From the IMG/VR virus record IMGVR_UViG_3300038427_000078: a DNA stretch of 64,000 bases; one strand, given 5' to 3'. The position numbers were made by a program, and so were the translations under genes. The notes below the pieces were generated by a model. It was not told where the DNA came from. It saw only the letters and a list, made by a program, of their open reading frames with translations, and ran no database searches. Positions 656 to 37,746 of this stretch are shown piece by piece. The stretch is from a virus. Position 1 is the first letter of the stretch. The number at the start of each line of letters is the position of its first letter.

Positions 656-730
656 CTCCTCGTAGCTCAGTCAGGACAGAGCAGCCGCCTTCTAAGCGGT
701 CGGTCGAGGGTTCGAATCCTTTCGGGGGGA
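656..730 (+). tRNA. tRNA-Arg(UCU)
   Basis: cloverleaf; anticodon arm gccgc-ct-TCT-aa-gcggt; T loop ttcgaat. Confidence 0.93.
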
Positions 731-961
731 CTTGACAGACGCAGATTCGTCTGCTACTCTGTCGAAACGGTAAGGTCCACCGTACATATCCAACGGACCG
801 GCTGGTCAGCCGTAACCATACGGCGAGTAGCTTGACGGACAGCGCCCAGGTGGGTGCGAGTCCAGCGCGAATAGCGGTTGAGCGATGTTGACACTTCTGC
901 CTCTCAGAGTAAGCAGCGGGTACAGAGTTCAGGGTTCGCGCCCGGAGCCAGCCAAATCTTC

Positions 962-1042
962 GCCAAGGTATGCAAGTGGACAAAGCACGCTGTCTGTAAA
1001 ACAGTTCTCTCGGGTTCGTAGGTTCGACTCCTACCCTTGGCA
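962..1042 (+). tRNA. tRNA-Tyr(GUA)
   Basis: acceptor gccaagg/ccttggc; loop ct-GTA-aa; long variable arm. Confidence 0.93.
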
Positions 1043-1109
1043 TAAAATCGAGTCCCCTCGCGGAAAATTTTTGCGGGGAATGCTCAGGCGAGATTAGCAT
1101 AATCTTCAC

Positions 1110-1132
1110 GCGCTGGTGATGGAACGGTAGAC
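1110..1132 (+). pseudogene. 5' fragment of a disrupted tRNA-Leu
   Basis: gcgctggtgatggaacggtagac = Leu-type acceptor 5' strand plus D arm; pairs with tcagcgc at 1790-1796. Confidence 0.7.
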
Positions 1133-1180
1133 TTGCTTTGTTTTCCATTCGCATCTGTGCTATAAGTAATAGAAGCATAC

Positions 1181-1265
1181 GTCCGCATGCTGGAACTCGG
1201 TAGACGGGCACGGTTGAGAGCCGTGTGGCCGAAAGGTCGTGTGGGTTCGACTCCCACTGTGGACA
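1181..1265 (+). tRNA. tRNA-Leu(GAG)
   Basis: acceptor gtccgca/tgtggac; cacgg-tt-GAG-ag-ccgtg; long variable arm with GAAA loop. Confidence 0.93.
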
Positions 1266-1267
1266 TC

Positions 1268-1750
1268 ATGGCATTTATCCATCGCTACACATTGGAGATG
1301 TTGGAAGAGGCAGCGGAGCACAGCACTTCGGTCGCTGGTGTCTGTCGTTATCTCAACATCAACAACCCTGGCGGTAGTTCGCAGACGAACATCCGCAATC
1401 GTCTTCGTGACTTCGGCATCGATACCTCACACTTCTTGGGTAAAGCTGCTCGCAAAGGAACACAAGCGAGCAATCGAAAGACGGCGGCAGAGATACTTGT
1501 ACGCCTTCCTTCTGGTGCCTACCGACCAGAAGCAAAGAAACTTCGACGGGCCTTGATCGAACAGGGACGAGAGTATGTCTGTGAGGGTTGCGGCAACAAA
1601 GCGTGGTGGAAAGAAGGCCCATTGACACTTGAAGTAGATCACATCGACGGCGATTGGCACAACAACGAAGAGGACAACCTTCGTTTCTTGTGTCCTAATT
1701 GTCATAGCGTTTACACGTTGCCCGGTGTACCATGTGGTACGGCGGACTAG
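1268..1750 (+). CDS. HNH homing endonuclease
   Basis: CEGC...LEVDHIDGDWHNNEEDNLRFLCPNCH. Confidence 0.9.
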   Translation: MAFIHRYTLEMLEEAAEHSTSVAGVCRYLNINNPGGSSQTNIRNRLRDFGIDTSHFLGKAARKGTQASNRKTAAEILVRLPSGAYRPEAKKLRRALIEQGREYVCEGCGNKAWWKEGPLTLEVDHIDGDWHNNEEDNLRFLCPNCHSVYTLPGVPCGTAD

Positions 1751-1797
1751 GACGTGGTGCCCTTCGGGGCGTGTGGGTTCGAATCCCACTCAGCGCA
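1747..1797 (+). pseudogene. 3' fragment of a disrupted tRNA-Leu(UAG)
   Basis: c-TAG-ga-cgtgg, variable arm gcccttcggggc, T arm gtggg-ttcgaat-cccac, acceptor 3' strand tcagcgc-a. Confidence 0.75.
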
Positions 1798-2070
1798 TAG
1801 GGCCGGTGGTCAGGCGACGGGGTAAGCTCCTGTCGAATGCAGCCGAGTAGGTCGGGGATCCAGGCGCGTCTGGTGAAAGACCCGTATCCCTCTTGAGGGG
1901 TGCCCATCTCAAGCACTTGGTTGCGGAGCGGTCAAGTGGGTAGAGGGCGGAAGCCAGCCTTGAAAGGTTGAGCCGAAAGCTCTAGCTCCAATGTTTCAAC
2001 TCCCGTGTAGTGGTGGAAGTCCACGTCGCGCAAGCGATTGTTACTGATGTGTGTCATGCACGGGAGCCAT

Positions 2071-2146
2071 GCCGCTGTGAAGGGAATTTGGCATACCTCT
2101 CACGCTTAGAACGTGAGGCTTGTGGGTTCGAGTCCCACTGGCGGCA
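2071..2146 (+). tRNA. tRNA-Leu(UAG), short variable loop
   Basis: gccgctg/tggcggc; tcacg-ct-TAG-aa-cgtga. Confidence 0.9.
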
Positions 2147-2164
2147 CTCAGTAGTGAAGTACCT

Positions 2165-2236
2165 GCCTCCGTATGGTTAGTGGTAGACCCTCCGACTTTT
2201 AATCGGGAAGCTGGGGTTCGATTCCCCACGGGGGTA
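2165..2236 (+). tRNA. tRNA-Lys(UUU)
   Basis: gcctccg/cgggggt; ccga-ct-TTT-aa-tcgg. Confidence 0.9.
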
Positions 2237-2387
2237 CTTTTGTGGTGATCGGCTGGGCTTGATCGGCCCGCTGTCCGATGGAAGGTGGTCGTGTGTCCAC
2301 TCTTCGACCCGCGTCAAGTAGGGCCACAACGAAGGGCAAGATACCTCCGTACCGCAGCGCGCCGGGACGATAGGTAACACACAACAT

Positions 2388-2460
2388 GGGCCTGTAGCTC
2401 AAATGGGAGAGCGCCTGCCTTGCAAGCAGGAGGTTGAGGGTTCGATTCCCTCTAGGTCCA
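2388..2460 (+). tRNA. tRNA-Ala(UGC)
   Basis: gggcctg/taggtcc with G3:U70; ct-TGC-aa. Confidence 0.95.
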
Positions 2461-2629
2461 CTGACTGTGGTGATCAGTCAAGCGGTAGCGGCCCCGGTAA
2501 AGGGTGCAGCCCGCACGAACTCACCACCGCCTCTGCGTTCACGGGCAGAGCAAATGGAAGTGTCGTGAGCTTCCCGTACAATTCTCTCTCCCCGATTTCA
2601 GTGCGTGGGATGGAGGGCGGTCGAATCAA

Positions 2630-2703
2630 CAGGGAGTAGCGCAGTCTGGTAGCGCACTTGGTTTGGAACCAAGGGGTCGCGGGTTCGAATCCCGCCTTCC
2701 TGA
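2630..2703 (+). tRNA. tRNA-Pro(UGG)
   Basis: cagggag/cttcctg; cttgg-tt-TGG-aa-ccaag. Confidence 0.95.
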
Positions 2704-2744
2704 TAGCAGAGGGACGGCTGCTTCGTAAACCGTCCCGCACTTAC

Positions 2745-2840
2745 GCGCCTGTAGCTCAGTGGTCAACGGTTCTCTTCGGGGAGCCAAAGAGTTGCCGCCT
2801 TTCAAGCGGTAGGTCCGGGGTTCGATTCCCCGTAGGCGCA
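2745..2840 (+). tRNA. tRNA with UUC (Glu) anticodon and an extra hairpin in the D loop
   Basis: gcgcctg/taggcgc; gccgc-ct-TTC-aa-gcggt; D loop contains ggttctc-TTCG-gggagcc. Confidence 0.8.
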
Positions 2841-2897
2841 TAACTCGTACCGCACCCCGGATTAGGGAGTACGAAGGCGGTGCAACGCCGCCACCAG

Positions 2898-2971
2898 CAG
2901 GGTATAGCGCAGTCTGGTAGCGCGCTCCCCTCGGACGGGAGAGGTCGTAGGTTCGAATCCTATTACCCTGA
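2898..2971 (+). tRNA. tRNA-Pro(CGG)
   Basis: cagggta/taccctg; ctccc-ct-CGG-ac-gggag. Confidence 0.95.
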
Positions 2972-3053
2972 TAGCGGCAGGCCATGGCCTGTCTCGAAGA
3001 TCCTCGGTTGAACCGTGAAGCCATAGTTACCACGGGCCGGTACGGATCGAGTT

Positions 3054-3126
3054 GCCGGTCTAGCTCTAATGGTAGAGCGCTTCCGTGGTAAGGAAGAGGT
3101 TCCGAGTTCGAATCTCGGGATCGGCT
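3054..3126 (+). tRNA. tRNA-Thr(GGU)
   Basis: gccggtc/gatcggc; cttcc-gt-GGT-aa-ggaag. Confidence 0.93.
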
Positions 3127-3388
3127 TAGCGGGGTAGACTCCATGCGCAGGGGTCGATGTCGAGGGAGTCATGACCCAAGGCACGCGGGTACCGACAGGC
3201 AAAGCGCCTGCTCGGTCCGTGCCGCACACTCATACCGTGCGCCGGGAAACCGCTAGACTGGCGGGTGTTACCGGATAAGGAGAGGCTAGTCACCGATCCG
3301 AAAAGGGATTGCTCGCACGGTTTTCTAGATTGATCGGTCGGCCTCCGGTAGAGGAGTAGCGGACGGGTCGCCCCTCCACGGAGGGCTT

Positions 3389-3460
3389 GCCAGCAAAGCG
3401 GAAGTGGTGCCGCACCCGTTTCGTAAGCGGGGGAATCGGGTTCAATTCCCGATGCTGGCT
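3389..3460 (+). tRNA. tRNA-Thr(CGU)
   Basis: gccagca/tgctggc; cccgt-tt-CGT-aa-gcggg. Confidence 0.88.
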
Positions 3461-3611
3461 TTGAGGCCGTGACCTCCGGGTAAGAAGCGCGGGGAGCGTC
3501 AGTCTTAGGTTGTCCAGGGTCTAAATTTGCGCCTGGCTGAGCAGCGGAGACTACATAACCGGCTCGCCTCACTTTCGTACTTTTCTTTCGGGTACGACAA
3601 GGTAATGTGTA

Positions 3612-4019
3612 ATGGTATGTGCTACCTGTAAAGAAGAGAAGGACTTGGACGAGTTCCATGCTGGTGCTCGCGTGTGTAAAGGCTGCAAGAAGGATGCCGA
3701 TGCTCGCTCGTTTCAGAAGCATCGGGAGGCTCGTCTAGAAAAGCGCCGACAGGATCGCCTCGCAGCACGCGAATGGTTTGAGTCCTTGAAGGCAGGAAAG
3801 AAGTGTGCCGACTGTGATCTGGATCATCCTCCGTGGAGGATGGATTGGGATCACCTTCCAGGCACAGAAAAGCTCTTTGAGATAGCCGATGTCAGCCACA
3901 TGGCAACGGGAGAGAAGGGCAAGCGGAAGATACTGGACGAGATTGCCAAGTGCGAGCTTGTCTGTGCCAACTGTCATCGAGACAGAACGCACGACCGCCG
4001 ACGGGGAGTGGCCCTGTAA
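3612..4019 (+). CDS. HNH homing endonuclease
   Basis: CxxC pairs; MDWDH...EIAKCELVCANCH. Confidence 0.88.
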   Translation: MVCATCKEEKDLDEFHAGARVCKGCKKDADARSFQKHREARLEKRRQDRLAAREWFESLKAGKKCADCDLDHPPWRMDWDHLPGTEKLFEIADVSHMATGEKGKRKILDEIAKCELVCANCHRDRTHDRRRGVAL

Positions 4020-4044
4020 CTCGGTTCGACTCCGAGTGTTGGCT
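4013..4044 (+). pseudogene. tRNA-Thr 3' remnant
   Basis: cc-TGT-aa followed by T arm ctcgg-ttcgact-ccgag and acceptor 3' strand tgttggc-t. Confidence 0.65.
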
Positions 4045-4089
4045 TCCATGGCAGACGAGGAGGCAAGCCCTCTCTTGACTCTGCCGCCA

Positions 4090-4162
4090 GGGGGATTGGT
4101 GTAAACGGCAATCATGATCGGCTCCAACCCGATTGATCAGGGTTCGAATCCTTGATCCCCCG
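4090..4162 (+). tRNA. tRNA-Trp(CCA)
   Basis: gggggat/atccccc; atcgg-ct-CCA-ac-ccgat. Confidence 0.9.
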
Positions 4163-4260
4163 CTGTAGCAGACGTGCTACCCGGCCAGGGGATCTACCTG
4201 GTGCAGGCCAATGCTGCCAGCCCACGCCAGTCGAAACGCTGTCCTGTGGCTGGCCTACCT

Positions 4261-4297
4261 GGTGTCTTAGCTCAGATGGTTAGAGCGCTGCCCTGTC
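4261..4297 (+). pseudogene. 5' half of tRNA-Asp(GUC), truncated right after the anticodon
   Basis: ggtgtct-ta-gctc-agatggtta-gagc-g-ctgcc-ct-GTC, then unrelated sequence. Confidence 0.8.
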
Positions 4298-4347
4298 TAG
4301 TAGACCACTGGCCTTCAAGGGCGGTGGTATCGGCTAGGTAATAGCTG

Positions 4348-4764
4348 ATGGCAACTACCAAGGACAAGGGCGACCTCGCTGAGCTACGCATCGCATCAGA
4401 CTTGATGCGGCAAGGATACAAGGTAGCTATTCCCTTCGGTGACAATTGGGACTTCGACCTGATCCTGTACCGCGATGGGTTCGAGAGGGTCCAGGTCAAG
4501 TACGCTCAGTCAGACGGTGAGAAGGTCGAGGTCAAGGCGGTAAGCTACTCGACCAACAAAGGTCTGACCATCTCAGCGAAACAGTACACCGCTGCTGAGA
4601 TTGACTGGCTTGCGGTGTACGATGTGACCACCGACGAATGCTTCTACGTGCCAGCTAGCGAGCTTGGCGACGGGATGAGGATGGTGACGCTCAGGTATAA
4701 GCCTGCGCGTAACAACCAGACCAAGGGCATCCGGTGGACGAAGGACTATGGGTCCGTAGCGTAG
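4348..4764 (+). CDS. PD-(D/E)XK homing endonuclease (family usually associated with tRNA group I introns)
   Basis: KGDLAE...GYKVAIPFGDNWDFDLI...RVQVK...IDWLAVY motif set. Confidence 0.88.
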   Translation: MATTKDKGDLAELRIASDLMRQGYKVAIPFGDNWDFDLILYRDGFERVQVKYAQSDGEKVEVKAVSYSTNKGLTISAKQYTAAEIDWLAVYDVTTDECFYVPASELGDGMRMVTLRYKPARNNQTKGIRWTKDYGSVA

Positions 4765-4823
4765 TGGTCTAACGCGCCTCCCTGTCAAGGAGGAGAACGG
4801 GGGTTCGAATCCCCTCGGTCCCG
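4750..4823 (+). tRNA. tRNA-Asp(GUC)
   Basis: gggtccg/cggtccc; cctcc-ct-GTC-aa-ggagg; overlaps the stop codon of the upstream ORF. Confidence 0.93.
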
Positions 4824-4845
4824 CTCAACAACGAAGCGGAGAATC

Positions 4846-4992
4846 ATGAAGCTCAGTAAGCTCAGTAAGCTAAGTCGTACATCCGAATTGCTCCCGTATC
4901 TTGAATCCGTTGAGCATTACGCCAACGCTGCCGTATACCACGGCACCTTCGAGGGCGAACAGTTCACGTTGACCTTTACCTTCGGCCCTTGA
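4846..4992 (+). CDS. small hypothetical protein (MKLSKLSKLSR...)
   Basis: ggaga RBS, 48 codons, 9-nt tandem repeat aagctcagt. Confidence 0.45.
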   Translation: MKLSKLSKLSRTSELLPYLESVEHYANAAVYHGTFEGEQFTLTFTFGP

Positions 4993-5000
4993 CTCGTCGC

Positions 5001-5029
5001 TTGACTTCTAGTCGTGGACCGTGTAGACT
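5001..5029 (+). promoter_or_regulatory. sigma70/SigA-type promoter, leaderless transcript
   Basis: TTGACT-N17-TAGACT with ATG 7 nt downstream. Confidence 0.75.
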
Positions 5030-5036
5030 ACGGTCC

Positions 5037-5504
5037 ATGAACCTACTAAAGACACTTCCTGTCGTGCTGCTCGTAGCCCTTGCTGGATGCGGAGCAGTTA
5101 CCAAAGCACCTGCCAAAGCACCTGCCCCGCACCCTAGTCTCCCCAAGGTGGTCAAGGTCACGGCGCAACCGACCACGACGACACCGGAACCCAGGCCCAG
5201 GCCCAAGCCTAGACCTGCGGTGGTAGTTCCTGTGCCTACTCCTACGCCTACATACCCGACATGCGATGGCGGACCCGTTGAATGCGGGAAGGCATCGGCA
5301 GCACCGACACGGGAAGAAAGTCTGCAACAGCACTACCGCGAAACCGGAGGCTGCGGTGGGGAAGGAGAGGCTGAATGTCCCGCCCACGGAGAAGGCAGCG
5401 GAGAAAATAGCGTCAACAGCACGGGTGAATCGCGTGCCTGTGCAGAAGAACGTAGTGAATACACAAGTGGCGAGAGGTCTAGTCTCCGCGTTGGCTGTCG
5501 ATAA
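5037..5504 (+). CDS. lipoprotein with Pro/Thr-rich stalk
   Basis: MNLLKTLPVVLLVALAG-C lipobox. Confidence 0.75.
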   Translation: MNLLKTLPVVLLVALAGCGAVTKAPAKAPAPHPSLPKVVKVTAQPTTTTPEPRPRPKPRPAVVVPVPTPTPTYPTCDGGPVECGKASAAPTREESLQQHYRETGGCGGEGEAECPAHGEGSGENSVNSTGESRACAEERSEYTSGERSSLRVGCR

Positions 5505-5544
5505 GTCAAGGCGGAGGTCGCGGGTTCGAGTCCCGTCGTTGTCG
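5505..5544 (+). pseudogene. 3' half of a tRNA-Asp(GUC)
   Basis: GTC-aa-ggcgg-aggtc-gcggg-ttcgagt-cccgt-cgttgtc-g. Confidence 0.75.
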
Positions 5545-5557
5545 CTCGCAGTACAAC

Positions 5558-5629
5558 GCGCTGGTAGCTCATTGGCAGAGCAATCGGTTTACACCCGATG
5601 TGTATGGGGTTCGATTCCCTGGTGGCGCA
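5558..5629 (+). tRNA. tRNA-Val(UAC)
   Basis: atcgg-tt-TAC-ac-ccgat; one acceptor mismatch. Confidence 0.88.
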
Positions 5630-5676
5630 TAGATGTCAAGTAGCTCTGTAGGCGCAGGGGGGTGCGACATCTTTGA

Positions 5677-5749
5677 GGGCGATTAGCTCAGTTGGGAGAG
5701 CGCCGTCGCGACATGGCGGAAGTCACTGGTTCGAGTCCAGTATTGCCCA
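5677..5749 (+). tRNA. tRNA-Val(GAC)
   Basis: gggcgat/attgccc; ccgtc-gc-GAC-at-ggcgg. Confidence 0.88.
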
Positions 5750-5938
5750 CTCTCCTGTCACCTAATTGGTGGCAGGGAATGCAAACCCACGACCAGCGTA
5801 AGAAAGGATGGTGATCCAGAAATCTACCTTGTAGACAGATGGTCGCCGTCCACAGTTGGTCGGCACTAAGTCGTTGGGGGAGGGTGAGGGCCGCTGGCTC
5901 TTAGCCCTCCCTCCGAGGTTCTTCGGAGCCTCACCCAT

Positions 5939-6335
5939 GGGCCTTTCCCGGTAATCGATTGGGTAGGTTCGGCAGTATGTCATGCAGCGGTCGTCACACC
6001 TACCTGACAAAAGCCATAACTGGCAACGCAACAGACACGCTCGCAATCCCCGCATCTCTCTTCGAGGTTCGGGCTAGCGACGTACTCGCTGTAGCCTAAG
6101 AAGCTACAAGCCGGGACCAGCCGAGTATCCTGGGAACAGAAACCTCGGAGGGCAGTGAGCGCCATGCCCTTGACGTGCAGAGTACCGTTGTAGTTACACC
6201 GCAAGGTGTTGGTAGCACCCCGCGCGTTCCCGGACGTATAACCGGGTGGTGGAGGCGGGCCATGCCTGTCCCAAAGCTGCTAGAAGTGACGCCTGTACGA
6301 GACTCAAGACGGCAGTTCGACTCTGCCAAGGTCCA
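5939..6335 (+). ncRNA. ssrA: tmRNA
   Basis: acceptor gggcctt/aaggtcc-a with G3:U; T arm ggcag-ttcgact-ctgcc; ATAACT-GGC resume context; tag ORF 6022-6099 GNATDTLAIPASLFEVRASDVLAVA*. Confidence 0.92.
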
Positions 6336-6369
6336 CTAAAACAAGGTCCATCCGTGCTAGAATAGATGG

Positions 6370-6807
6370 ATGGGCAGAGAGCAAAGACGAGCAAAGCAAT
6401 TGGGTATGCCGCATGGCACAGCCATGCACCGCTTGCGTAAACGAGTGATGTTTTCACTAGCTCAGGAGTTGCACTTGGATCAGTGCATCGTGTGTAAGAG
6501 GATGATCGAAGATGCTGACGACCTTAGCATCGAGCACATCCAGCCGTGGGAGGGCCGAGACACGTCCCTGTTTTGGGACATCACTAACATCGCTTTCTCT
6601 CATCGCTGGTGCAACCAACCTCATACGCGACCGGGCAAGCCTCCGGTTCATGACCTCAAGCCCGACATGTGGTGGTGCTCCCACTGCGAACAAGAACTTC
6701 CGCTTGATCGATTCGGCCTCAAGACAGTGACAAGTGGAGCTAAACGACCACGAAACTACTGCAACAAATGCCGTACCGAACGTAAAGCAATGGGCCTCTC
6801 GGCCTAG
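6370..6807 (+). CDS. HNH homing endonuclease
   Basis: CIVC...SIEHIQPW...NIAFSHRWCN plus C-terminal Zn ribbon. Confidence 0.82.
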   Translation: MGREQRRAKQLGMPHGTAMHRLRKRVMFSLAQELHLDQCIVCKRMIEDADDLSIEHIQPWEGRDTSLFWDITNIAFSHRWCNQPHTRPGKPPVHDLKPDMWWCSHCEQELPLDRFGLKTVTSGAKRPRNYCNKCRTERKAMGLSA

Positions 6808-6812
6808 TCCAC

Positions 6813-6841
6813 TTGACAAGCCGGAGAAGACGTGCTAAGCT
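6813..6841 (+). promoter_or_regulatory. SigA-type promoter
   Basis: TTGACA-N17-TAAGCT, ATG at 6848. Confidence 0.7.
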
Positions 6842-6974
6842 CCCGGCATGGAACAAGACAAAAACGGAAACCTGATCTGCAACGTCTGTGGACAGGATTG
6901 GGCAAGCCAACACACCATCGGGGCAACTGCCTCCAACCTCCCAGGAAGCCAAGTCAACCAAAGGAAGGCAAGTG

Positions 6975-7277
6975 ATGGGCTACTACATCGAGACACCCCT
7001 CCCGCTCGCGAAGGCACTTCAACTCGAAGAGCTTCACGGTGCGGAGCCGTACTCGGGTACGTTCGAGGACGTACCGGAGGGCAAGGTCGTAGTCGCAGTG
7101 GTACAGAACGGTCTGTTCGACGCCGCTGGCATCTGCTACGACGAGAACGAGTTCAAGGCATTCACCGCTGACCCAAGCGACACCAGGCCGAAAGACCTGT
7201 TGACGCTGGACAAGGACACCGCCCTACGGCTGTGCCCGCACGCAGCGGAGGTACTTGGAGAGGACGTGGCTACCTGA
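6975..7277 (+). CDS. hypothetical protein
   Basis: RBS aaggaagg; GC3-biased codons. Confidence 0.7.
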   Translation: MGYYIETPLPLAKALQLEELHGAEPYSGTFEDVPEGKVVVAVVQNGLFDAAGICYDENEFKAFTADPSDTRPKDLLTLDKDTALRLCPHAAEVLGEDVAT

Positions 7278-7483
7278 TGCCCGTCCTTTTCTTCATCATC
7301 GCAGGCATCATCCTGATCGCCAACTCGGGCTGGTTCCACGGAGCAGACATCGTTGGCATCGTCCTGCTCGTCTTTGGCGGGCTTGGACTTGTCCTCTGGC
7401 TCGTCGCTGCGAAATTCGCACGGAGCATCATCAAAGAGGTCAAAGGACCAGGGACACCCCGGCATCCCCGGAGGTTCCGCTAA
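7277..7483 (+). CDS. small two-TM membrane protein
   Basis: two hydrophobic stretches and basic tail; TGATG coupling. Confidence 0.7.
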   Translation: MPVLFFIIAGIILIANSGWFHGADIVGIVLLVFGGLGLVLWLVAAKFARSIIKEVKGPGTPRHPRRFR

Positions 7484-7490
7484 GTTGTTC

Positions 7491-7563
7491 GCCCTTGTAG
7501 CTCAGAGGATAGAGCATCGGTTTCCTAAACCGTGTGTCGCGGGTTCGATTCCCTCCGGTGCCA
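7491..7563 (+). tRNA. tRNA-Arg(CCU), degenerate acceptor and T stems (possibly pseudo)
   Basis: cggt-tt-CCT-aa-accg; acceptor gcccttg/cggtgcc has 2 mismatches. Confidence 0.6.
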
Positions 7564-7579
7564 TGGTATACTGTTGGGT

Positions 7580-7921
7580 ATGAGTGATCAAGACCTAACA
7601 GAGCAGCAAGTAGTGGCTGCGGAGGCCGGTGTCGGAGACAGCATACAGGCCATCGCGGACCGCGCAGTCAAGGCCGTCGAGGTACTGGACTTGAGCGAGG
7701 GCGATGTTCTCGTAGTCAAGCTCGGCATCGATGACATGGGTGACGGACTCCCACCGTGGATTCCGGGACCAGCGGAGCTAGAGCAGGTGTCAGATGCCTT
7801 GACCGCGACAGTGCCAGAGGGCGTACGGGTGCTAGTTCACCACCTGGGAATCAACTTCCAGATCGTACGCGGCCTCGACACCAGTAACCCGGTCGTAGTC
7901 GAATCGCTGCCAACAGAGTAA
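7580..7921 (+). CDS. small protein paralogous to an internal portal-protein domain
   Basis: KLGIDDMGDGLPPWIPGPAELE...RVLVHHLG matches portal KLGIMDMGDGLPPWLPGPEELE...RVMVHHFG. Confidence 0.85.
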   Translation: MSDQDLTEQQVVAAEAGVGDSIQAIADRAVKAVEVLDLSEGDVLVVKLGIDDMGDGLPPWIPGPAELEQVSDALTATVPEGVRVLVHHLGINFQIVRGLDTSNPVVVESLPTE

Positions 7922-7924
7922 CAC

Positions 7925-7999
7925 GCGGGAATAGCTCAGCCAGGTTAGAGCACTTCTCTGATAAGGAAGGGGTCAGAGGTTCAAATCCTCTTTTCCGCA
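7925..7999 (+). tRNA. tRNA-Ile(GAU)
   Basis: gcgggaa/tttccgc; ct-GAT-aa. Confidence 0.93.
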
Positions 8000-8084
8000 T
8001 CGCAGGAAAATCGGTCCTGAAAAATTAGGGTCGGCGCTCAGAAAAATTTTGCGCCAACTTCTCAGGCGAGATTAGCCTAATTAC

Positions 8085-8159
8085 GCCCAAGTGACGGGAA
8101 TTGGCATACCTGGCAAGCTCAAACCTTGTCGTTTGTGGGTTCGACTCCCACTTTGGGCA
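8085..8159 (+). tRNA. tRNA-Leu(CAA), short variable loop
   Basis: gcccaag/tttgggc; gcaag-ct-CAA-ac-cttgt. Confidence 0.9.
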
Positions 8160-8191
8160 CTTTTTGTCGAACCTTCTGACACGTAATATAC

Positions 8192-8524
8192 GTGGCATAC
8201 AAGGATCCTCAGAAGCAGAAAGAAGCACAGCATCGGTCATATCTGCGTAACAAAGAGATAATCCTCAGGCGCAGTTCTGATCGCATCAAAGAGCTTCGAC
8301 GCAAAGTGCGAGAGTACAAGGAGGAGCGTGGTTGTAGCGCGTGCGGGTACAACAAATACGGTGGGGCTATCGATGCTCATCACCCAAACGGCAAGGATAA
8401 CCAAGAACAGTGCATTGCCCGTTTGTGCAAACGGGCCTTTCCGTGGGAGACAATCCTTGCGGAGCTTGAGAAGTGCATTCTTCTCTGTTCCAACTGTCAT
8501 CGCGAGCACCATCGCGGTGAGTAG
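8192..8524 (+). CDS. HNH homing endonuclease
   Basis: CSACGY...IDAHH...ELEKCILLCSNCH. Confidence 0.88.
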   Translation: MAYKDPQKQKEAQHRSYLRNKEIILRRSSDRIKELRRKVREYKEERGCSACGYNKYGGAIDAHHPNGKDNQEQCIARLCKRAFPWETILAELEKCILLCSNCHREHHRGE

Positions 8525-8546
8525 CATAACGCGCTATACTGGAAAT

Positions 8547-8723
8547 ATGGGACCAGACAAATGTGGCGCAGAAGTCGGACTTTTGGCAAGATGCCAAAGA
8601 CCGGCGAATCACGACGGAGAGCACTCAGGGCCGATTTTCGTCCCTCAGTGGATTACCTATTTGGGCGAGGGTGACGAGATTCCTCGCAGTCAGTACCAAT
8701 CGTGCGGAGTGGAGCAACGGTAG
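8547..8723 (+). CDS. small hypothetical protein; stop codon lies inside tRNA-fMet
   Basis: TATACT 6 nt before ATG (leaderless); C..C..H..H motif. Confidence 0.55.
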   Translation: MGPDKCGAEVGLLARCQRPANHDGEHSGPIFVPQWITYLGEGDEIPRSQYQSCGVEQR

Positions 8724-8774
8724 CTCGCAAGGCCCATAACCTTGAGGTAGGAAGTTCGACTCTTCCCTCCGCTA
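8703..8774 (+). tRNA. tRNA-Met(CAU), initiator-like
   Basis: unpaired 1:72 (T:T); tggagc D stem; caagg-cc-CAT-aa-ccttg. Confidence 0.85.
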
Positions 8775-8786
8775 TAGCAGTACAAT

Positions 8787-8858
8787 TCCGGGTTCGTCTA
8801 ATCGGCAGGATGTCTGGTTCTGAGCCAGATGGTCAGGGTTCGAATCCTTGACCCGGAG
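8787..8858 (+). tRNA. tRNA-Gln(CUG)
   Basis: tccgggt/acccgga; tctgg-tt-CTG-ag-ccaga. Confidence 0.92.
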
Positions 8859-8920
8859 CTTTGGCAGTAGAAGGCGAACAGCGCTTAGAGCGGGTTCGTG
8901 GGATCCCGCGCTGTCAACAT

Positions 8921-8991
8921 TGGGGGTTCGTTCAACGGCAGGACAGCGGGCCTTGAACCCGCGAATCGGGGTTCGAATCCCTGACCCCCAG
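8921..8991 (+). tRNA. tRNA-Gln(UUG)
   Basis: tgggggt/accccca; gcggg-cc-TTG-aa-cccgc. Confidence 0.92.
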
Positions 8992-9073
8992 CTAGCAAGG
9001 CAAGGAGCCGGTAGGCGTGTGCTACCGGACCAGAACGAGGCGTCACTGCACGCCTACCTTGCCGCAATCTTTC

Positions 9074-9157
9074 GCCTCTCTGGTTGGAATGGTAGACACA
9101 GCGGGCCTAAACCCCGCCGATCTTCGGATCGTCCGAGTTCGACTCTCGGGAGAGGCA
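9074..9157 (+). tRNA. tRNA-Leu(UAA)
   Basis: gcctctc/gagaggc; gcggg-cc-TAA-ac-cccgc; long variable arm. Confidence 0.9.
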
Positions 9158-9159
9158 TC

Positions 9160-9234
9160 GCGTCGGAAGCTCAAGTGCGAGCGCCGCCCATTTGGGGGCG
9201 GAGGTCGAGGGCGATTAGCTCCCCTCTCGGCGCA
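9160..9234 (+). ncRNA. tRNA-like cloverleaf with non-canonical loops
   Basis: gcgtcgg/tcggcgc, gctc/gagc, ccgcc/ggcgg, gaggg/ccctc stems; no TTCGA loop; 8-nt anticodon loop. Confidence 0.6.
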
Positions 9235-9238
9235 ACAT

Positions 9239-9312
9239 GGTGGTCGTCATCTAATGGACTAGGATTCGAGGTTGTGAACCTCGCCATGCGGGTTCGATTC
9301 CCGTCGATCACC
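9239..9312 (+). tRNA. tRNA-His(GUG) with encoded G-1
   Basis: g-gtggtcg/cgatcac-c; cgagg-tt-GTG-aa-cctcg. Confidence 0.92.
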
Positions 9313-9324
9313 CTGGCAGCACAA

Positions 9325-9399
9325 GCGCCACTAGCTCAGTCTGGTTAGAGCAACTGTCTTATCAACAGCGTGTCCGGGGTTCAAATCCTCGGTGGCGCA
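9325..9399 (+). tRNA. tRNA with UAU anticodon (Ile AUA reader)
   Basis: gcgccac/gtggcgc; ctgt-ct-TAT-ca-acag. Confidence 0.8.
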
Positions 9400-9405
9400 C
9401 TTCAT

Positions 9406-9479
9406 GGCCCGTGGGTCTTATGGCAAGGATTCCGCGTTCTCAGCGCGTGAGATGATGGGTTCGAATCCCATACGGGCTA
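9406..9479 (+). tRNA. tRNA-Glu(CUC)
   Basis: ggcccgt/acgggct; cgcg-tt-CTC-ag-cgcg. Confidence 0.88.
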
Positions 9480-9554
9480 CTCTGTAGGTACCATTCGAAT
9501 GGCTCTGCCTGCGGAACGCTTGACTTCATCGCACCCGTGCGATATGATGTCGCT

Positions 9555-10208
9555 ATGTCGAGAGCAAGAGACTGGACCCACCCAATCACCGGCGAGCTAC
9601 ACTGGTTCGACGTACACGGCATGGCTGGGGTCCGGGAACTCGAAGTTCTCGCAGACGCCGAAGACATCGACTTGGACGACCTGTTCGACGCGAACCTCTC
9701 TTCTAAGGAGGTTCTGTTCCGGCTCAACAAGCTCAGTGAGCTAATCCCGGAGGCGGGCCTCAACAAGCTCAAGAAACGTCAGACACAGGGCGAGCCTGAG
9801 ACTTGCCGCATCTGCCCGCTACTCGGTCGGGAGTGCGAAGGTCGAATGACCAAACATCACTTCGTGCCGCGTTGGATCATGTTGGAACTGGCAGACTACG
9901 AGGTCTATGCACCGCGTAGGCTCTGCACAGTCCCGGCGTGCGCCGGGAGCCACCGTTGGCTCCACATGCGGACCGAGGAGGGATCGAAATCCATCGCTCC
10001 TTACCTCGACAAGAATGAGAAGGCACTAGCGCACCATCTCATCGGGACACTCCGTCAGGAGCGCCCCAGGATCTACGCCCTCCTCGCGGGCGGGGACAAG
10101 AACAGCTACGAGTGGCAACTTGTTCAGGATTGGCGGCGAGGACTGTTTGATGTCAGGGGGGAAGGGAAAGATCCCTTCCCTCGCTGGCAGCTACGAAACT
10201 CTCTGTAG
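9555..10208 (+). CDS. HNH-like protein
   Basis: CRIC...TKHHFVPR...VPACAGSH; upstream TTGACT-N17-TATGAT promoter; stop codon inside tRNA-Arg. Confidence 0.65.
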   Translation: MSRARDWTHPITGELHWFDVHGMAGVRELEVLADAEDIDLDDLFDANLSSKEVLFRLNKLSELIPEAGLNKLKKRQTQGEPETCRICPLLGRECEGRMTKHHFVPRWIMLELADYEVYAPRRLCTVPACAGSHRWLHMRTEEGSKSIAPYLDKNEKALAHHLIGTLRQERPRIYALLAGGDKNSYEWQLVQDWRRGLFDVRGEGKDPFPRWQLRNSL

Positions 10209-10271
10209 CTCAGTGGATAGAGCGTCCGGTTGCGATCCGGGAGGTCGGCGGTTCGAGTCCGTCCAGGGAGG
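10199..10271 (+). tRNA. tRNA-Arg(GCG)
   Basis: ctctctg/cagggag; tccgg-tt-GCG-at-ccggg. Confidence 0.9.
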
Positions 10272-10299
10272 TACGTTAGAACCCTGCTAAGGTGTAGAT

Positions 10300-10479
10300 A
10301 TGCCTTACGCAGATAGAGAGAAACAGGCGGCGTATCAACGCGATTGGTACCGACGCCACAAAGAGCAACATATCAACCGTATTCGTAACGAACGTCGTAA
10401 GAGGCGTGAAGTGGTCAACGAATACAAGCTCTCAAGAGGGTGTAACCGATCGCGGGTTCGATTCCCGCATAGTGCTTAG
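10300..10479 (+). pseudogene. truncated HNH gene fused to an orphan tRNA T arm
   Basis: MPYADREKQAAYQRDWY...EYKLSRGC resembles the N-terminus of 8192-8524, then gcggg-ttcgatt-cccgc. Confidence 0.7.
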
Positions 10480-10486
10480 ATCAAAC

Positions 10487-11073
10487 TTCGTATCAGGCGG
10501 TTGCTGCGCTTGAAAGACAGCGTAGAGGAAGTTCGGGGCATGCTGGCAGGGGAAACCTTGTCATCGGCTCAACTACACCGAGTGACACCGGCCCAAAGGA
10601 GGTACGCCCTCGTTGGTGTTCCGGCGCATGCAACTCCAAGTAGAGAACCCTACGGCGAAAGCTATGGGCATATCGGGTTGGAGGCTTAGATGGATGATCG
10701 CCACCAGTTACGACTCAGAGGAGAGACATGAACTACTGTGAAGCGATGGCCTACGTCGCGGGGCTGTTGGAGGGCGAGGGATGCTTCGATTTCGTAGCTC
10801 CCGGCCATCCAAGGATCCGCATGGAGACAACAGATGAAGATGTGGCATACTGGCTTCAACACTTGGTTGAAGGTGGGACAATCACTAATCGTCAGGGCAA
10901 ACGCAGTAATCACAGCGATTCGTTTGTGTGGCAAACGAGCAGGGCTGATGTGGTCAAGAAGGTCTTGACGGCAATCTATCCTTGGACAAGTGCTCGCAGG
11001 CGAGTAAAGATTGATGAACTCATGTCTGCTCTCTGAGCCGTAGTTGGTACAGAACCCCGGCTATCGATACGAA
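10487..11073 (+). ncRNA. rnpB: RNase P RNA (reduced S-domain, no P18) with an ORF inserted in P19
   Basis: P1 ttcgtatc/gatacgaa; P2 ggcggtt/gatcgcc; P3; GAGGAAGTTCGGGGC at 10525; TAGATGGATG; ACAGAACCCCGGCTA at 11049; P4 forms 8 bp with a bulged U. Confidence 0.88.
10728..11036 (+). CDS. single-motif LAGLIDADG homing endonuclease inside the RNase P RNA
   Basis: YVAGLLEGEGCF motif; RBS gaggag. Confidence 0.9.
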   Translation: MNYCEAMAYVAGLLEGEGCFDFVAPGHPRIRMETTDEDVAYWLQHLVEGGTITNRQGKRSNHSDSFVWQTSRADVVKKVLTAIYPWTSARRRVKIDELMSAL

Positions 11074-11114
11074 TATGCCCCTCGGCTCTGTTCAGAACGG
11101 CTTGGGGGCACCAA

Positions 11115-11188
11115 GCCTGTGATGCAGAAATGGTGCTGCGCTCGCCTTGTAAGCGAGAATAGACTCGGTTCGATTCCGAGCATAGGCT
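11115..11188 (+). tRNA. tRNA-Thr(UGU)
   Basis: gcctgtg/cataggc; ctcgc-ct-TGT-aa-gcgag. Confidence 0.88.
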
Positions 11189-11352
11189 CTGACTGCGCTC
11201 TTGCAAGCACCGGGAACCGGCGTGCGGCAGAGCGGCGCGCTGGTCACCCGTGGCTAGTCCTCATTTGCTCAACGCACCCCGGATTAGGGATTGGGCAGGC
11301 TAGTCTAGTGTGAGTACCCACTGATCGCGATGAGCGTGAGGGGAAATCCAAT

Positions 11353-11423
11353 GCGGATGTGGCGTAATGGTAACGTATTTGCCTTCCAAGCAAAGGTTGC
11401 GGGTTCGACTCCCGTCTTCCGCT
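11353..11423 (+). tRNA. tRNA-Gly(UCC)
   Basis: gcggatg/cttccgc; tttgc-ct-TCC-aa-gcaaa. Confidence 0.93.
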
Positions 11424-11489
11424 TCAACCCACGACACAAAGGAGGTACCCCATGCGGTTAGGCACTGTCTAATCGAAAGGAGGTACTAA

Positions 11490-11660
11490 GTGAACGGCAA
11501 CCTCGCAGCCAAGGCTGCGAAGCTCATGCAGAAGAACGGGAACCGCGACAAAGGAGGCGGATCCCACAAGTACGGACGCAACCGCAACAAGTGCGCCCGC
11601 TACCGCGCCCGCGTGGGGAAGCCCCGTGGTCCTGGTGTCGATGGAAACAAGAAACACTAG
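11490..11660 (+). CDS. small very basic protein (56 aa)
   Basis: strong RBS gaaaggaggt plus GTG; MNGNLAAKAAKLMQKNGNRDKGGGSHKYGRNRNKCARYRARVGKPRGPGVDGNKKH. Confidence 0.7.
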   Translation: MNGNLAAKAAKLMQKNGNRDKGGGSHKYGRNRNKCARYRARVGKPRGPGVDGNKKH

Positions 11661-11697
11661 AGGGTGGCCGACCGGCCCACTGGAACGGTCGGATTAG

Positions 11698-11768
11698 TGC
11701 TGTGTAGCTCAACGGTAGAGCAACTGGCTCATAACCAGAAGACGGCGGTTCGACCCCGCTCGCAGCGA
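11698..11768 (+). tRNA. tRNA-Met(CAU)
   Basis: tgctgtg/cgcagcg; ctgg-ct-CAT-aa-ccag. Confidence 0.88.
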
Positions 11769-11818
11769 CTCATAACTCACAGGCTCCTTTCGAGCCATTT
11801 CCGGGCGCATAATGCTTG

Positions 11819-35114: not shown

Positions 35115-35633
35115 ATGGATAGCTTATGTGAGTGTGGTTGTGGGAAAATGGCTCCTATCGCAACCAAGACAAACGTTTCAAGGGGTCATGTCAAAGGACA
35201 ACCTGTGCGATTCATTCGCGGACATTACAAAGGCGGTAGTCCAGGCCGTCGTGTGCCAATTTGGGATATTAGCGAAGATGGGCGTATGGCGACGGGGGAA
35301 TGTAAGCGGCATGGCATTGGAAAGTTCGTTCTTCGAGGCGATGGGACAATGCGTTATCGTTGCCAATCTTGCGCTAGCATGCACGCTCGCAATTGGAATA
35401 AACGACGTAAGGAAACGCTTGTCAAGGAGCATGGGGGCAAGTGTGTTATTTGCGGATACGATAGATACCTGGGCGCTTTTCATTTCCACCATCGGGATCG
35501 TACGACAAAGGAGTTTCATGTGAATCAACATGGACCTGGAATTGAGGCAGCGCGGGTAGAGGCAAAGAAGTGTATTCTGCTCTGTGGCAACTGTCATTCC
35601 GAGGTTGAGGGTGGGTTCAGTGAGCTTCCGTAA
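35115..35633 (+). CDS. HNH homing endonuclease
   Basis: CECGCG N-terminus; FHFHH...KKCILLCGNCH; lower GC than flanks. Confidence 0.88.
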   Translation: MDSLCECGCGKMAPIATKTNVSRGHVKGQPVRFIRGHYKGGSPGRRVPIWDISEDGRMATGECKRHGIGKFVLRGDGTMRYRCQSCASMHARNWNKRRKETLVKEHGGKCVICGYDRYLGAFHFHHRDRTTKEFHVNQHGPGIEAARVEAKKCILLCGNCHSEVEGGFSELP

Positions 35634-35640
35634 GGACTCT

Positions 35641-37746
35641 ATGACCGTGCAGCCGCTCGCCAGTGTCAAGGAGGCTGCTCGCGCACCAGACTACGCCGAA
35701 TACGGTGGCTGGTGGGGCTTCAACGACAAGCAGTTCCGGGTCTACGGCGGCTATCTCAACGGACAGCTTGTCGGCTTCGGCGTGGTCAAGCTCGACAGCG
35801 ACGTGCCGAGAGTCATCGTGGTTCACTCAGCGGTTCGTGAGGACGCCATGAACGAGGCCATGCTCCGTCGCATCGCGCTCCACTTCCCGAGCCTCAAAGC
35901 CGGTGCTGACAGCCCGGAGGAGGAACGCCTCCTATCCCGAGTGGGACTGCTTGAGGCACAGCCGGGACTATGGCTCAAGATCGCTGGTCAGGAAGGCAAG
36001 GACATCTTGCAAGCGCCGATCCCGTTCGTCTACGATGTCGAAAAAGACGAAATCGAAGTCGGGCACCCCGGCCAGAAAACAGCGGACGTGCAAGGCGAGT
36101 TCACGCCGGGTGGTATAGTGGAGGGCTACTATGAACCTGGCGGCAAGATGGTCATCACGACCAAAACATCGATCCCCTACACGAACTACCACATGGTACA
36201 ATTGTGGTATTGGAGTCATCCAACGTTGGAGGTAACAGGAGTGGACTATGAAAACACAGGACAGAAGAAGGTCAAGCTCGCATCGGAGGATGTCGGGCAG
36301 TACATCCGCACACTCGCGTCTGCTGACCCTGCGGCGTGGAAGGCGTATCAAGCTCTTGGTGCTGCTGGCGGTCACGTATATGTGGTGGGCGGTGCGGTCC
36401 GCGATGCCCTCCTACAACGTCAACCCAAGGACATTGACTTGCTGGTTGGTGGTCTACCTAGCGAGGAGGTTCACCGAATCCTTACGTCACTCCCTGGACA
36501 GGTTGACATGCGCGGTTCGAGGTTCGGCATCTACGTCTACCACACGCACGGCAAAGAGGTAGAGATTGCGCTTCCACGCAAAGACGACTACGAGGGTGGC
36601 AAACGCGCTGATGTGAAAATCAGCGCCGACCCGAACCTACCTATCGAGAAGGATCTGGAACGCCGTGACTTCACCGCGAACAGCATGGCCGTGGACCTCA
36701 ACAGCGGTCAACTCATTGACCCATTCGACGGCTCAGGCGACATCAGCCGTGGCGTGCTTCGCACCACTCACCCGAAGTCATTCAAGGAGGATCCGACGAG
36801 GCTTATGCGTGCGCTCACCGCTACCTCGCGCTTCGGCCTAGAGCCGGATGAGAAGACGAGGGCCGAGATGGGTGAATCCGCGCACATGCTCGACCATGAG
36901 TCACCGGACGCCCTACGGGTCCAGCTAGAGAAACTGATGGTGAGCGCAAACCCGGCACGGGCGGTACGACTCGCGCAGGAAACTGGCGTGCTTCACCACC
37001 TATTCCCGGAGCTTGCGGAGAACTACGACTTCGACCAGCACAATCCACACCACAACTACTCCCTTGGCGACCACTCACTACAGGTGCTCGACAACATGGC
37101 GCGAATCACACCTAACCCTGACATGCGCCTCGCTGCGTTGCTTCACGACATCGGCAAGCCGGGGTCGCAGTGGTTCGACGGTCACGGTGTGGCTCACTAC
37201 TACCCACGTCCGCAGCACCTAGACGCAGAACTCGCTCCTGGGGGTAAGTGGCAGCGTGCCGAGAATTGGGGCGCGGACCACGCAGCCTTGGGCGCGAACA
37301 TGGCCGAGGCCCGCCTGCGTCAGACCTTCAACTACCCGGTGGAGAACATGCGCCGCATTCACTCACTCATCAACGCCCACATGTTCGGCAACTTCGAGAA
37401 ACCGAAGGGGGCACGCAAGTTCCTACAGCAGAACGGCCAGCACGCCGACGACCTACTCACACTGCGTGAATGCGATGGGGAGGGCAAGGGCACCGAGAGC
37501 ACAGACAATGTGGAACAGATGCGCCAACTCATCGAAAACGAGCGACAGCAGGGTGCTCCCACCACTCAGTCCGCGCTAGCTGTCAACGGTAACGACATTA
37601 TGGGCCTTGGCATAAAGGCAGGCCCGCAGATCGGCACCATTCTGCGCCAGCTAACAGATGACGTGGTAGACGATCCGAAACTCAATGACCGCGAAGCTCT
37701 CCTACAGCGCGCTCAGGAATACGCCGATGCTCAGCCAGGTAGCTAA
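35641..37746 (+). CDS. cca: CCA-adding tRNA nucleotidyltransferase with HD domain and N-terminal extension
   Basis: VGGAVRD, DIDL, RRDFTANSMA, EDPTRLMRA, LLHDIGKP. Confidence 0.88.
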   Translation: MTVQPLASVKEAARAPDYAEYGGWWGFNDKQFRVYGGYLNGQLVGFGVVKLDSDVPRVIVVHSAVREDAMNEAMLRRIALHFPSLKAGADSPEEERLLSRVGLLEAQPGLWLKIAGQEGKDILQAPIPFVYDVEKDEIEVGHPGQKTADVQGEFTPGGIVEGYYEPGGKMVITTKTSIPYTNYHMVQLWYWSHPTLEVTGVDYENTGQKKVKLASEDVGQYIRTLASADPAAWKAYQALGAAGGHVYVVGGAVRDALLQRQPKDIDLLVGGLPSEEVHRILTSLPGQVDMRGSRFGIYVYHTHGKEVEIALPRKDDYEGGKRADVKISADPNLPIEKDLERRDFTANSMAVDLNSGQLIDPFDGSGDISRGVLRTTHPKSFKEDPTRLMRALTATSRFGLEPDEKTRAEMGESAHMLDHESPDALRVQLEKLMVSANPARAVRLAQETGVLHHLFPELAENYDFDQHNPHHNYSLGDHSLQVLDNMARITPNPDMRLAALLHDIGKPGSQWFDGHGVAHYYPRPQHLDAELAPGGKWQRAENWGADHAALGANMAEARLRQTFNYPVENMRRIHSLINAHMFGNFEKPKGARKFLQQNGQHADDLLTLRECDGEGKGTESTDNVEQMRQLIENERQQGAPTTQSALAVNGNDIMGLGIKAGPQIGTILRQLTDDVVDDPKLNDREALLQRAQEYADAQPGS

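Follow-up and report, generated by a model that had tools for sequence, protein, structure and literature searches.

A compact RNase P RNA predicted in a peat-soil phage, with a conserved catalytic domain and no recognisable elbow dock or P18

Described RNase P RNAs and the phage RNA

RNase P RNA is the textbook universal ribozyme, and its gene is regarded as belonging to cells or organelles. In its type A form, helix P18 ties the catalytic domain (C-domain) to P8 of the specificity domain (S-domain), and the CCA end of the tRNA is recognised by the C-domain through the GGU of L15, not by the S-domain. The smallest bacterial RNase P RNA, that of Mycoplasma fermentans, measures about 276 nt. 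In canonical RNase P the elbow of the tRNA is docked by the double T-loop J11/12-J12/11 (PMC3664808). Here we describe a gene found in a 64,000-nt stretch of DNA from a peat-soil phage (IMG/VR virus record IMGVR_UViG_3300038427_000078; the whole stretch is called the window below), located at 10487-11073 on the + strand within the tRNA array of the phage. Judged from its sequence, its product (the window RNA) is an RNase P RNA of bacterial type-A descent. The reading we favour, to which we give a probability of about 0.7, is that it would be a working phage-encoded RNase P RNA with an intact catalytic domain and with neither an elbow dock nor P18.

With the type A RNAs (E. coli M1/rnpB, T. maritima; RF00010), the window RNA shares the P1-P5 core, conserved regions CR-I and CR-V, the AA of J5/15, a P15 loop with GGU, the GCU of J15/18, and UAGAUGNAUG of J18/2. 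However, it measures 241 nt compared with about 330-400 nt, has no P18, has a single GAAA-capped hairpin and no P6, P16, or P17, and is devoid of P12-P14 and of the double T-loop. Its P4 includes an extra G-C pair and a U-G pair, and its P19 is present and enlarged by an endonuclease gene.

Other described RNAs resemble it in single traits. The type T RNAs of Thermoproteaceae (Pyrobaculum) are also natural RNAs with a degenerate S-domain that rely on the C-domain (PMC3579882); however, they are archaeal, work with archaeal proteins, and have lost nearly the whole S-domain, whereas the window RNA plainly descends from bacterial type A and keeps an 82-nt stub. In E. coli, P18 is the inter-domain link and is no longer needed when the S-domain has been taken away; the type-A C-domain is a catalyst by itself, and the C5 protein raises its activity (PMC5839562). 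That engineered C-domain-only RNA (Eco CP RPR), a catalytic domain without a functional elbow site that is helped by C5, is a laboratory construct of reduced efficiency (PMC5839562), whereas the window RNA would be a natural viral gene kept by selection. P12 is absent from the RNase P RNA of Mycoplasma fermentans (PMC2858038), a natural loss shared with the window RNA, which is shorter and also lacks P18. Mitochondrial RNase P RNAs without J11/12-J12/11 have lost the dock together with the tRNA elbows (PMC3664808); the window RNA has likewise lost the dock, but the 28 tRNAs of this phage keep canonical elbows.

Identity of the RNA and its phage lineage

The conserved helices and single-stranded elements of the catalytic domain are all present and in the correct order (P1-P5, P15 with GGU, J15/18, J18/2, and CR-V). 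The single-stranded motifs fit the RF00010 consensus strings obtained by cmscan of a relative, namely GAGGAAAGUCCGGgC, GCAA, AAAUAGG, CGGGUa, GCU, CuAGAugAAUG, and ACAGAACCCGGCUUA. Alignment of the relatives with MAFFT followed by RNAalifold yielded no more than P4, a short hairpin, and a single helix of the S-domain, since the variable parts were misaligned, and a covariance model with a hand-made structure (R1) was therefore built from two near-identical relatives (L004 and L050). Run over 3.5 kb on both strands with filters off, R1 gave as its top two hits a collinear pair, one at 10496-10702 (model positions 13-258, bounded exactly by the two strands of P2; 17.2 bits, E 2.9e-5) and one at 10989-11075 (the 3' side of P19, CR-V, and the 3' strand of P1; 17.0 bits, E 3.3e-5), the next hit scoring 8.3 bits. 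The match is split in two because the insert in P19 is longer than the model can span. The model finds 21 members among the fetched loci; in their alignment, 94.7% of cells are paired compared with 59% after shuffling and 34-46% with slid partners, and 65 of the 70 pairs show changes on both sides. These figures are biased toward the structure to which the alignment was fitted, although the margin is still large.

Changes in the closest relative, the phage locus L033, point in the same direction. The two RNAs are 74% identical in the first 95 nt and 73% identical in the 59-nt stretch running from the 3' strand of P5 to that of P15, with hardly any gaps. They were compared in a manual alignment because the R1 alignment of L033, which has its own 230-nt insert, is wrong beyond the 5' part. 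Among 45 homologous pairs (P1, P2, P3, P5, the S-domain hairpins S1 and S2, P15, and the hairpin at the P16/P17 position), 26 are identical, 5 have one-sided changes, 14 have compensatory changes, and none is broken.

The helices of the core are distributed as follows, all on the + strand. P1 pairs UUCGUAUC (10487-10494) with GAUACGAA (11066-11073) over 8 bp, as read from the sequence, with compensatory changes relative to L033 in five of the eight pairs and covariation at all seven model pairs across the family. P2 (GGCGGU at 10496-10501 with AUCGCC at 10697-10702, the 3' strand placed by the R1 alignment) differs from L033 by one compensatory and two one-sided changes. P3, a hairpin of 6 bp (UGCGCU/AGCGUA) with an 8-nt loop at 10505-10524 in the R1 alignment, has the same 6-bp architecture in L033 by manual reading, and the four pairs counted by script include one compensatory change at the loop-closing pair. 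CR-I, containing the 5' strand of P4 (GAGGAAGUUCGGGGC, 10525-10539), is an identical 15-mer in the relatives that reach the RF00010 threshold, and CR-V, containing its 3' strand (ACAGAACCCCGGCUA, 11049-11063), lies in the second R1 match and is also an identical 15-mer in relatives. P4 itself pairs 10529-10538 with 11055-11062, one of two adjacent U's (10532 or 10533) being bulged, a pairing that is also predicted from the alignment of the family. P5 (CAUGC at 10539-10543 with GCAUG at 10626-10630) has one compensatory change relative to L033, and its 3' strand, together with the CAA of J5/15 (10626-10633 in all), fits the RF00010 consensus GCAA and the R1 alignment.

P15 is formed by CUCCA(A) and (U)UGGAG, either 10634-10638 with 10679-10683 or 10634-10639 with 10678-10683, and the whole element at 10634-10683 folds with a z-score of -2.4. 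J15/16 (AAGUAGAG, read from the sequence) lies between the 5' strand of P15 and a single GAAA-capped hairpin which, by folding, takes the place of P16/P17 at 10648-10668. J16/15 (CAUAUCGGGU), placed directly 5' of the P15 3' strand by sequence, folding, and R1, includes the CCA-binding GGU (10675-10678; CGGGU at 10674-10678). P15 and the GAAA hairpin show four compensatory changes relative to L033 within the 59-nt stretch, which aligns there without gaps.

The window RNA is not alone among phages. The exact CR-I 15-mer was found in 67 viral contigs, in about 25 of which the same strand has CR-V 158-400 nt further downstream, and a search with the CR-V 15-mer adds further members. The window has this lineage pattern, CR-I and CR-V on one strand and bracketed by P1, and the P4 variant of the lineage consists of GAAGUUCGGGGC paired with AACCCCGGCU. 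Four distinct members reach the RF00010 threshold (L057 with 255 bits, L012 with 191, L053 with 141, and L024/L026 with 124), and shorter members give significant matches below it (L044 with 63.5 bits, L011 with 63.1, L029 with 54, and L004 with 28.4). In the cmscan alignment of L044, 18 nt stand in place of 110 model positions of P10-P14. The distance between the P5 strands is 135-156 nt in the full-size members L012, L053, and L057, 94-95 nt in L029 and L004, 82 nt in the window, 68-70 nt in L099, 67 nt in L022, 57 nt in L044, and 44-57 nt in L011 and L084. As the sequences read, the S-domain is shrinking stepwise within this phage lineage, whose members are likewise flanked by tRNAs.

Among 185,579 prokaryote species (one genome each), the CR-I/CR-V pair was not found at reduced spacing, and at canonical spacing it was found only in two short contigs of metagenome-assembled genomes (L100 and L101), one from a Pseudomonadota bin and carrying four tRNA genes, the other from a Nitrososphaerales archaeon bin. 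Both are probably mis-binned phage DNA, and the CR-I/CR-V variant looks phage-specific by its distribution. A blastn search of 10280-11120 against the cultured-phage collection gave no match. No paper on a phage-encoded RNase P RNA was found in the full-text literature, a result that does not prove that none exists, and the lineage is apparently unpublished.

Some members of the lineage show further peculiarities. The RNase P RNA of L033 (11969-12445, - strand) has its insert, which measures about 230 nt and includes an ORF of about 65 codons, at the P12 tip and not in P19. L026 (3013-3836, + strand), which is the same as L024, has two CR-I motifs about 500 nt apart 5' of one CR-V, and the RF00010 match uses the second, an arrangement suggesting that the 5' part of this RNase P gene is duplicated or split. 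In L051, a GOLLD RNA (RF02032, 203 bits) at 4882-5334 on the - strand lies about 2 kb from an RNase P-like gene, and the L022 contig, with an RNase P RNA of 240 nt, also has a permuted tmRNA gene of the two-piece type (6659-6983, - strand).

Specificity domain, P18, and size

Between the P5 strands, the S-domain (10544-10625) contains, according to folding, two short hairpins and a stub. S1 (10544-10563) is an 8-bp hairpin with a GAAA tetraloop at the P8 position, the loop being L9-like; its pairing probability is about 0.99, R1 aligns it to the P8-like hairpin of L004, and it differs from L033 by one compensatory and three one-sided changes. S2 (10564-10581) is a 4-bp hairpin (UCGG/CCGA; probability about 0.47) with the 10-nt loop CUCAACUACA, and in L033 it has a compensatory change from C-G to G-C and a similar loop. 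S3 (10584-10624) is a remnant of P10/P11 with the tip GAGG-UACGC-CCUC at 10599-10611 (probability 0.9). Its base has two alternative foldings, a 9-bp stem (10584-10592 with 10612-10620; probability 0.47) and CCGG/CCGG (10588-10591 with 10621-10624; probability 0.44), the latter abutting P5 as in the relatives. The S-domain is thus read as a small four-way junction of P5, S1, S2, and the P10/P11 stub, without a J11/12-J12/11 elbow dock.

The absence of the dock can be followed in the family. In most members, a module consisting of a helix, GAG, P12, CGYUUGNA, and a return strand occupies the place of the J11/12-J12/11 double T-loop, and its helix GUGG/CCAC covaries to AUCG/CGAU, GUAG/CUAC, and GCGG/CCGC. 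Since J11/12 of this module has only 3 nt, at most one T-loop could be present even there. The window RNA keeps the module helix as GAGG/CCUC, with a compensatory change from U-A to A-U relative to L033, and since this helix is capped directly by the five bases UACGC, the GAG-P12-CGYUUGNA module is entirely gone. The same pentaloop on P11 is found in two other members, L079 (GUGG-UGCGU-CCAC) and L090 (GUGG-UACGG-CCAC). In the R1 alignment, a local end stands in place of 76 S-domain positions. By manual reading, no U(G/U)NRA T-loop pentamer occurs in 10544-10625, and there is no space for a J11/12-J12/11 module. A GUUGG in S3 was considered as a T-loop-like remnant of CGYUUGGA and rejected, the GAGG/CCUC helix being the one that corresponds to the family helix GUGG/CCAC.

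The loop of S2 was also examined for a distant contact. Its CAACUAC (10570-10576) is perfectly complementary to GUAGUUG (11040-11046) on the 3' strand of P19, and such a pairing could act as a rival to the P19 stem, in which the start codon of the endonuclease gene is hidden. This 7-nt pairing was rejected, as it is missing from L033 and hardly exceeds what chance would give.

The second loss concerns P18. In the RF00010 consensus, GCU and CuAGAugAAUG flank this helix; in the window, GCU is joined directly to UAGAUGGAUGA, so that J15/18 and J18/2 (UAGAUGGAUG) form one direct junction at 10684-10696, and R1 places 3 nt there against 38 P18 positions in the relatives. The spacing from the P15 3' strand to the P2 3' strand is 13 nt, compared with 26-195 nt in all 21 aligned relatives, and the window RNA is the only one of the 22 members compared that has no P18. 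In addition, P6 cannot form because no J5/7 strand is left. Within the lineage the window copy is unusual in three respects: two S-domain hairpins are kept, P18 is fully lost, and P19 contains an endonuclease gene. The RNA measures 241 nt when the insert (10703-11048) is left out, a length that matches the shortest relatives collected (L022 with 240 nt and L084 with 245 nt).

A sequence-only reading of this DNA had described the RNA as a minimal phage RNase P RNA centred on the catalytic domain, and this view agrees with a retained catalytic core, a missing elbow dock, and a missing P18. Its description of three short hairpins in about 85 nt within a P4/P5 helix (catgc/gcatg) stands as regards a small S-domain, which we describe as two hairpins and a stub in 82 nt; the enclosing helix is P5, not P4/P5. 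It had found the T-loop motifs of the S-domain unrecognisable, as borne out by the missing pentamer and the pentaloop on P11, and the R1 alignment revealed no normal S-domain. Its observation that P15 (ctccaa/ttggag) leads to TAGATG without P18 was correct, only GCU intervening. The core is indeed small, but the size of about 270 nt that it proposed applies only if part of the P19 stem is counted, which gives about 270-295 nt.

Several observations weigh against a working ribozyme. Rfam gave no RNase P match in the window at gathering thresholds, in 3 kb at E <= 10, or on the 5' part alone: the RF00010 gathering threshold (100 bits) is not reached, and type B (RF00011), archaeal (RF00373), and type T (RF02357) models do not match either. 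The R1 scores are modest, at 17 bits each, and come from a model of only two near-identical sequences. L033 is the only close relative. The base of S3 has two nearly equal foldings and is without covariation support, because the searches for closer relatives gave nothing further (a 19-mer of CR-I plus AT in metagenome contigs gave only L097, which equals L022, and L099, and the P16/P17 pattern in viral contigs gave only L033). The S-domain as a whole folds no better than shuffled sequences (z -1.1), and folding might suffer from the 346-nt insert if this is not processed.

Together with the loss of P18 in only one of the 22 members and the absence of a module conserved in the family, the S-domain fold and the missing Rfam match would also be expected of a decaying gene, in which the RNA became inactive after the loss of P12-P14 and P18 and the invasion by the endonuclease, the phage relying on host RNase P. 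We consider such decay improbable. The conserved motifs of the catalytic core are all intact, no pair is broken in the comparison with L033 while 14 have changed in a compensatory manner, and the insert sits at the tip of a helix whose closing stem of 26 bp is kept. Moreover, L079 and L090 have reached the same state of P11, and the joint loss of P18 and its partner in the S-domain makes sense because P18 is dispensable without the S-domain, a combination tolerated experimentally (PMC5839562).

The P19 insert, the tRNA array, and the predicted function

In the relatives, a short P19 hairpin occupies the position where the window RNA has a 346-nt insert (10703-11048), as delimited by folding and ORF matches. 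The insert is closed by a nearly perfect stem of about 26 bp (10703-10731 with 11020-11048; z -4.7, with none of 100 shuffles as good), and its loop contains a homing-endonuclease ORF of 102 aa (10728-11036) that matches phrog_5046 (E 6e-13) and, weakly and below the cut-off, Pfam LAGLIDADG_3 (E 0.0015). A group I intron was considered and rejected, as the insert fits none of the intron models and consists of ORF for 309 of its 346 nt. The stretch 10300-11200 is present in whole or in part in 24 metagenome runs of peat or wetland origin, belonging to 24 studies (2017-2025); 14 of the runs have at least half of the sampled words. In four peat metagenome DNA runs examined, each from a different study, the covered parts are identical except for a G>A change at 10819 in the endonuclease ORF, and the insert junctions are bridged at the 5' side in three runs and at the 3' side in two.

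The stem of the insert bears on how the RNA might work. It is long enough for RNase III, and by manual mapping onto the fold both the start (10728) and the stop (11034-11036) of the ORF lie inside it, and translation and folding should therefore compete. The RNA might accordingly work only after processing: a cut in the P19 stem, by RNase III for instance, would free the endonuclease mRNA, and the ribozyme would then consist of two pieces joined through P1, P4, and what is left of P19. RNase P RNAs retain activity when split or circularly permuted. This variant appears possible but rather unlikely. Group I introns carry endonuclease ORFs in peripheral loops that are not cut out, and the DNA contigs of the four runs that cover the insert region show no insert-free form. 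In the reading that we favour, the endonuclease gene lies at the tip of P19, a place where it does not have to interfere with folding, and the insert would be either tolerated or cut out.

The putative substrates surround the gene. The array at 656-11769 comprises 28 tRNA genes and one tmRNA gene; a tRNA-Thr gene starts 41 nt 3' of the RNase P RNA gene, and a lone tRNA 3' fragment ends 10 nt 5' of it. No promoter-like or terminator-like sites adjoining the gene were found, and the RNA is probably transcribed as part of the array. The tRNA fragment (10440-10478) comprises the T arm GCGGGTTCGATTCCCGC and the acceptor 3' strand ATAGTGC and is contained in the terminal part of a 59-aa ORF (10300-10479). 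The window has no 5' half that matches the fragment, which may be what is left of a tRNA gene that was interrupted by a homing cassette consisting of tRNA-Arg (10199-10271) and a truncated endonuclease.

None of the 28 tRNA genes encodes a 3'-CCA, as the sequence-only reading had stated; the tRNA trailers often begin with CU or UA, and three tRNA pairs are only 6-12 nt apart. That reading had further proposed that an RNase P centred on the catalytic domain, with relaxed T-loop recognition, would suit CCA-less tRNAs and atypical tRNA-like RNAs, and neither part of this proposal is supported. The CCA is read by the GGU of the C-domain, which the window RNA keeps, and a CCA-adding enzyme is encoded at 35584-37746 on the + strand (Pfam PolyA_pol head with E 3e-26, PolyA_pol_RNAbd, HD, and tRNA_NucTran2_2). 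A canonical (G/U)UUCRA T-loop and the GG of the D-loop are present in all 28 tRNAs; the substrates therefore still offer an elbow that the ribozyme could no longer read, and the reduced S-domain has no counterpart in unusual substrates. A relaxed substrate range of the predicted ribozyme is possible. The CCA-adding enzyme has 720 aa, about 260 of them in an unexplained extension at the N-terminus, and shares at most 30% identity with the enzymes of cultured phages.

As for the protein partner, five records of related phages, of which three are complete, gave no match to RnpA (PF00825), whereas 10 of 14 control genomes matched (10 of the 12 named bacteria), and host RnpA is likely the partner protein. 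The missing phage rnpA and the conservation of the protein-binding regions (P2/P3, J18/2, and J2/4) would also fit an RNA that acts mainly as a competitor, soaking up host RnpA or pre-tRNA and so shifting processing away from host transcripts. This seems to us very improbable, since the active-site elements (the bulged U of P4, the AA of J5/15, and the GGU of L15), which a sponge would not need, are conserved, and both the location in a tRNA array and the CCA-adding enzyme gene fit a tRNA maturation kit. As a catalyst, the window RNA would bind host RnpA and cut the 5' leaders of the phage tRNAs and tmRNA. The substrates would be recognised by the acceptor stem, the leader, and the pairing of CCA with GGU, the CCA being supplied by the CCA-adding enzyme of the phage, and the distance to the tRNA elbow would not be measured.

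We hold it slightly more probable than its opposite that a natural bacterial-type RNase P RNA works in vivo without elbow dock or P18 on tRNAs with normal elbows, that at 241 nt it would be the smallest RNase P RNA of its kind in the bacterial lineage, and that an apparently unpublished phage lineage records the stepwise loss of the S-domain. With this RNA, 28 tRNA genes, a tmRNA gene, and a CCA-adding enzyme, the phage would encode most of its own tRNA maturation line. Phage annotations miss such RNAs because they escape Rfam. The RNAs of the lineage may serve as compact starting points for engineered RNase P tools, and the window RNA would show P19 tolerating the insertion of a 346-nt gene. 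A virus-borne lineage with graded loss of the S-domain would amount to a natural deletion series, bearing on what the S-domain and P18 are needed for and on how small a bacterial RNase P can be. If the reading is true, the 'molecular ruler' half of the enzyme would be dispensable given the host protein, CCA pairing, and co-transcribed substrates.

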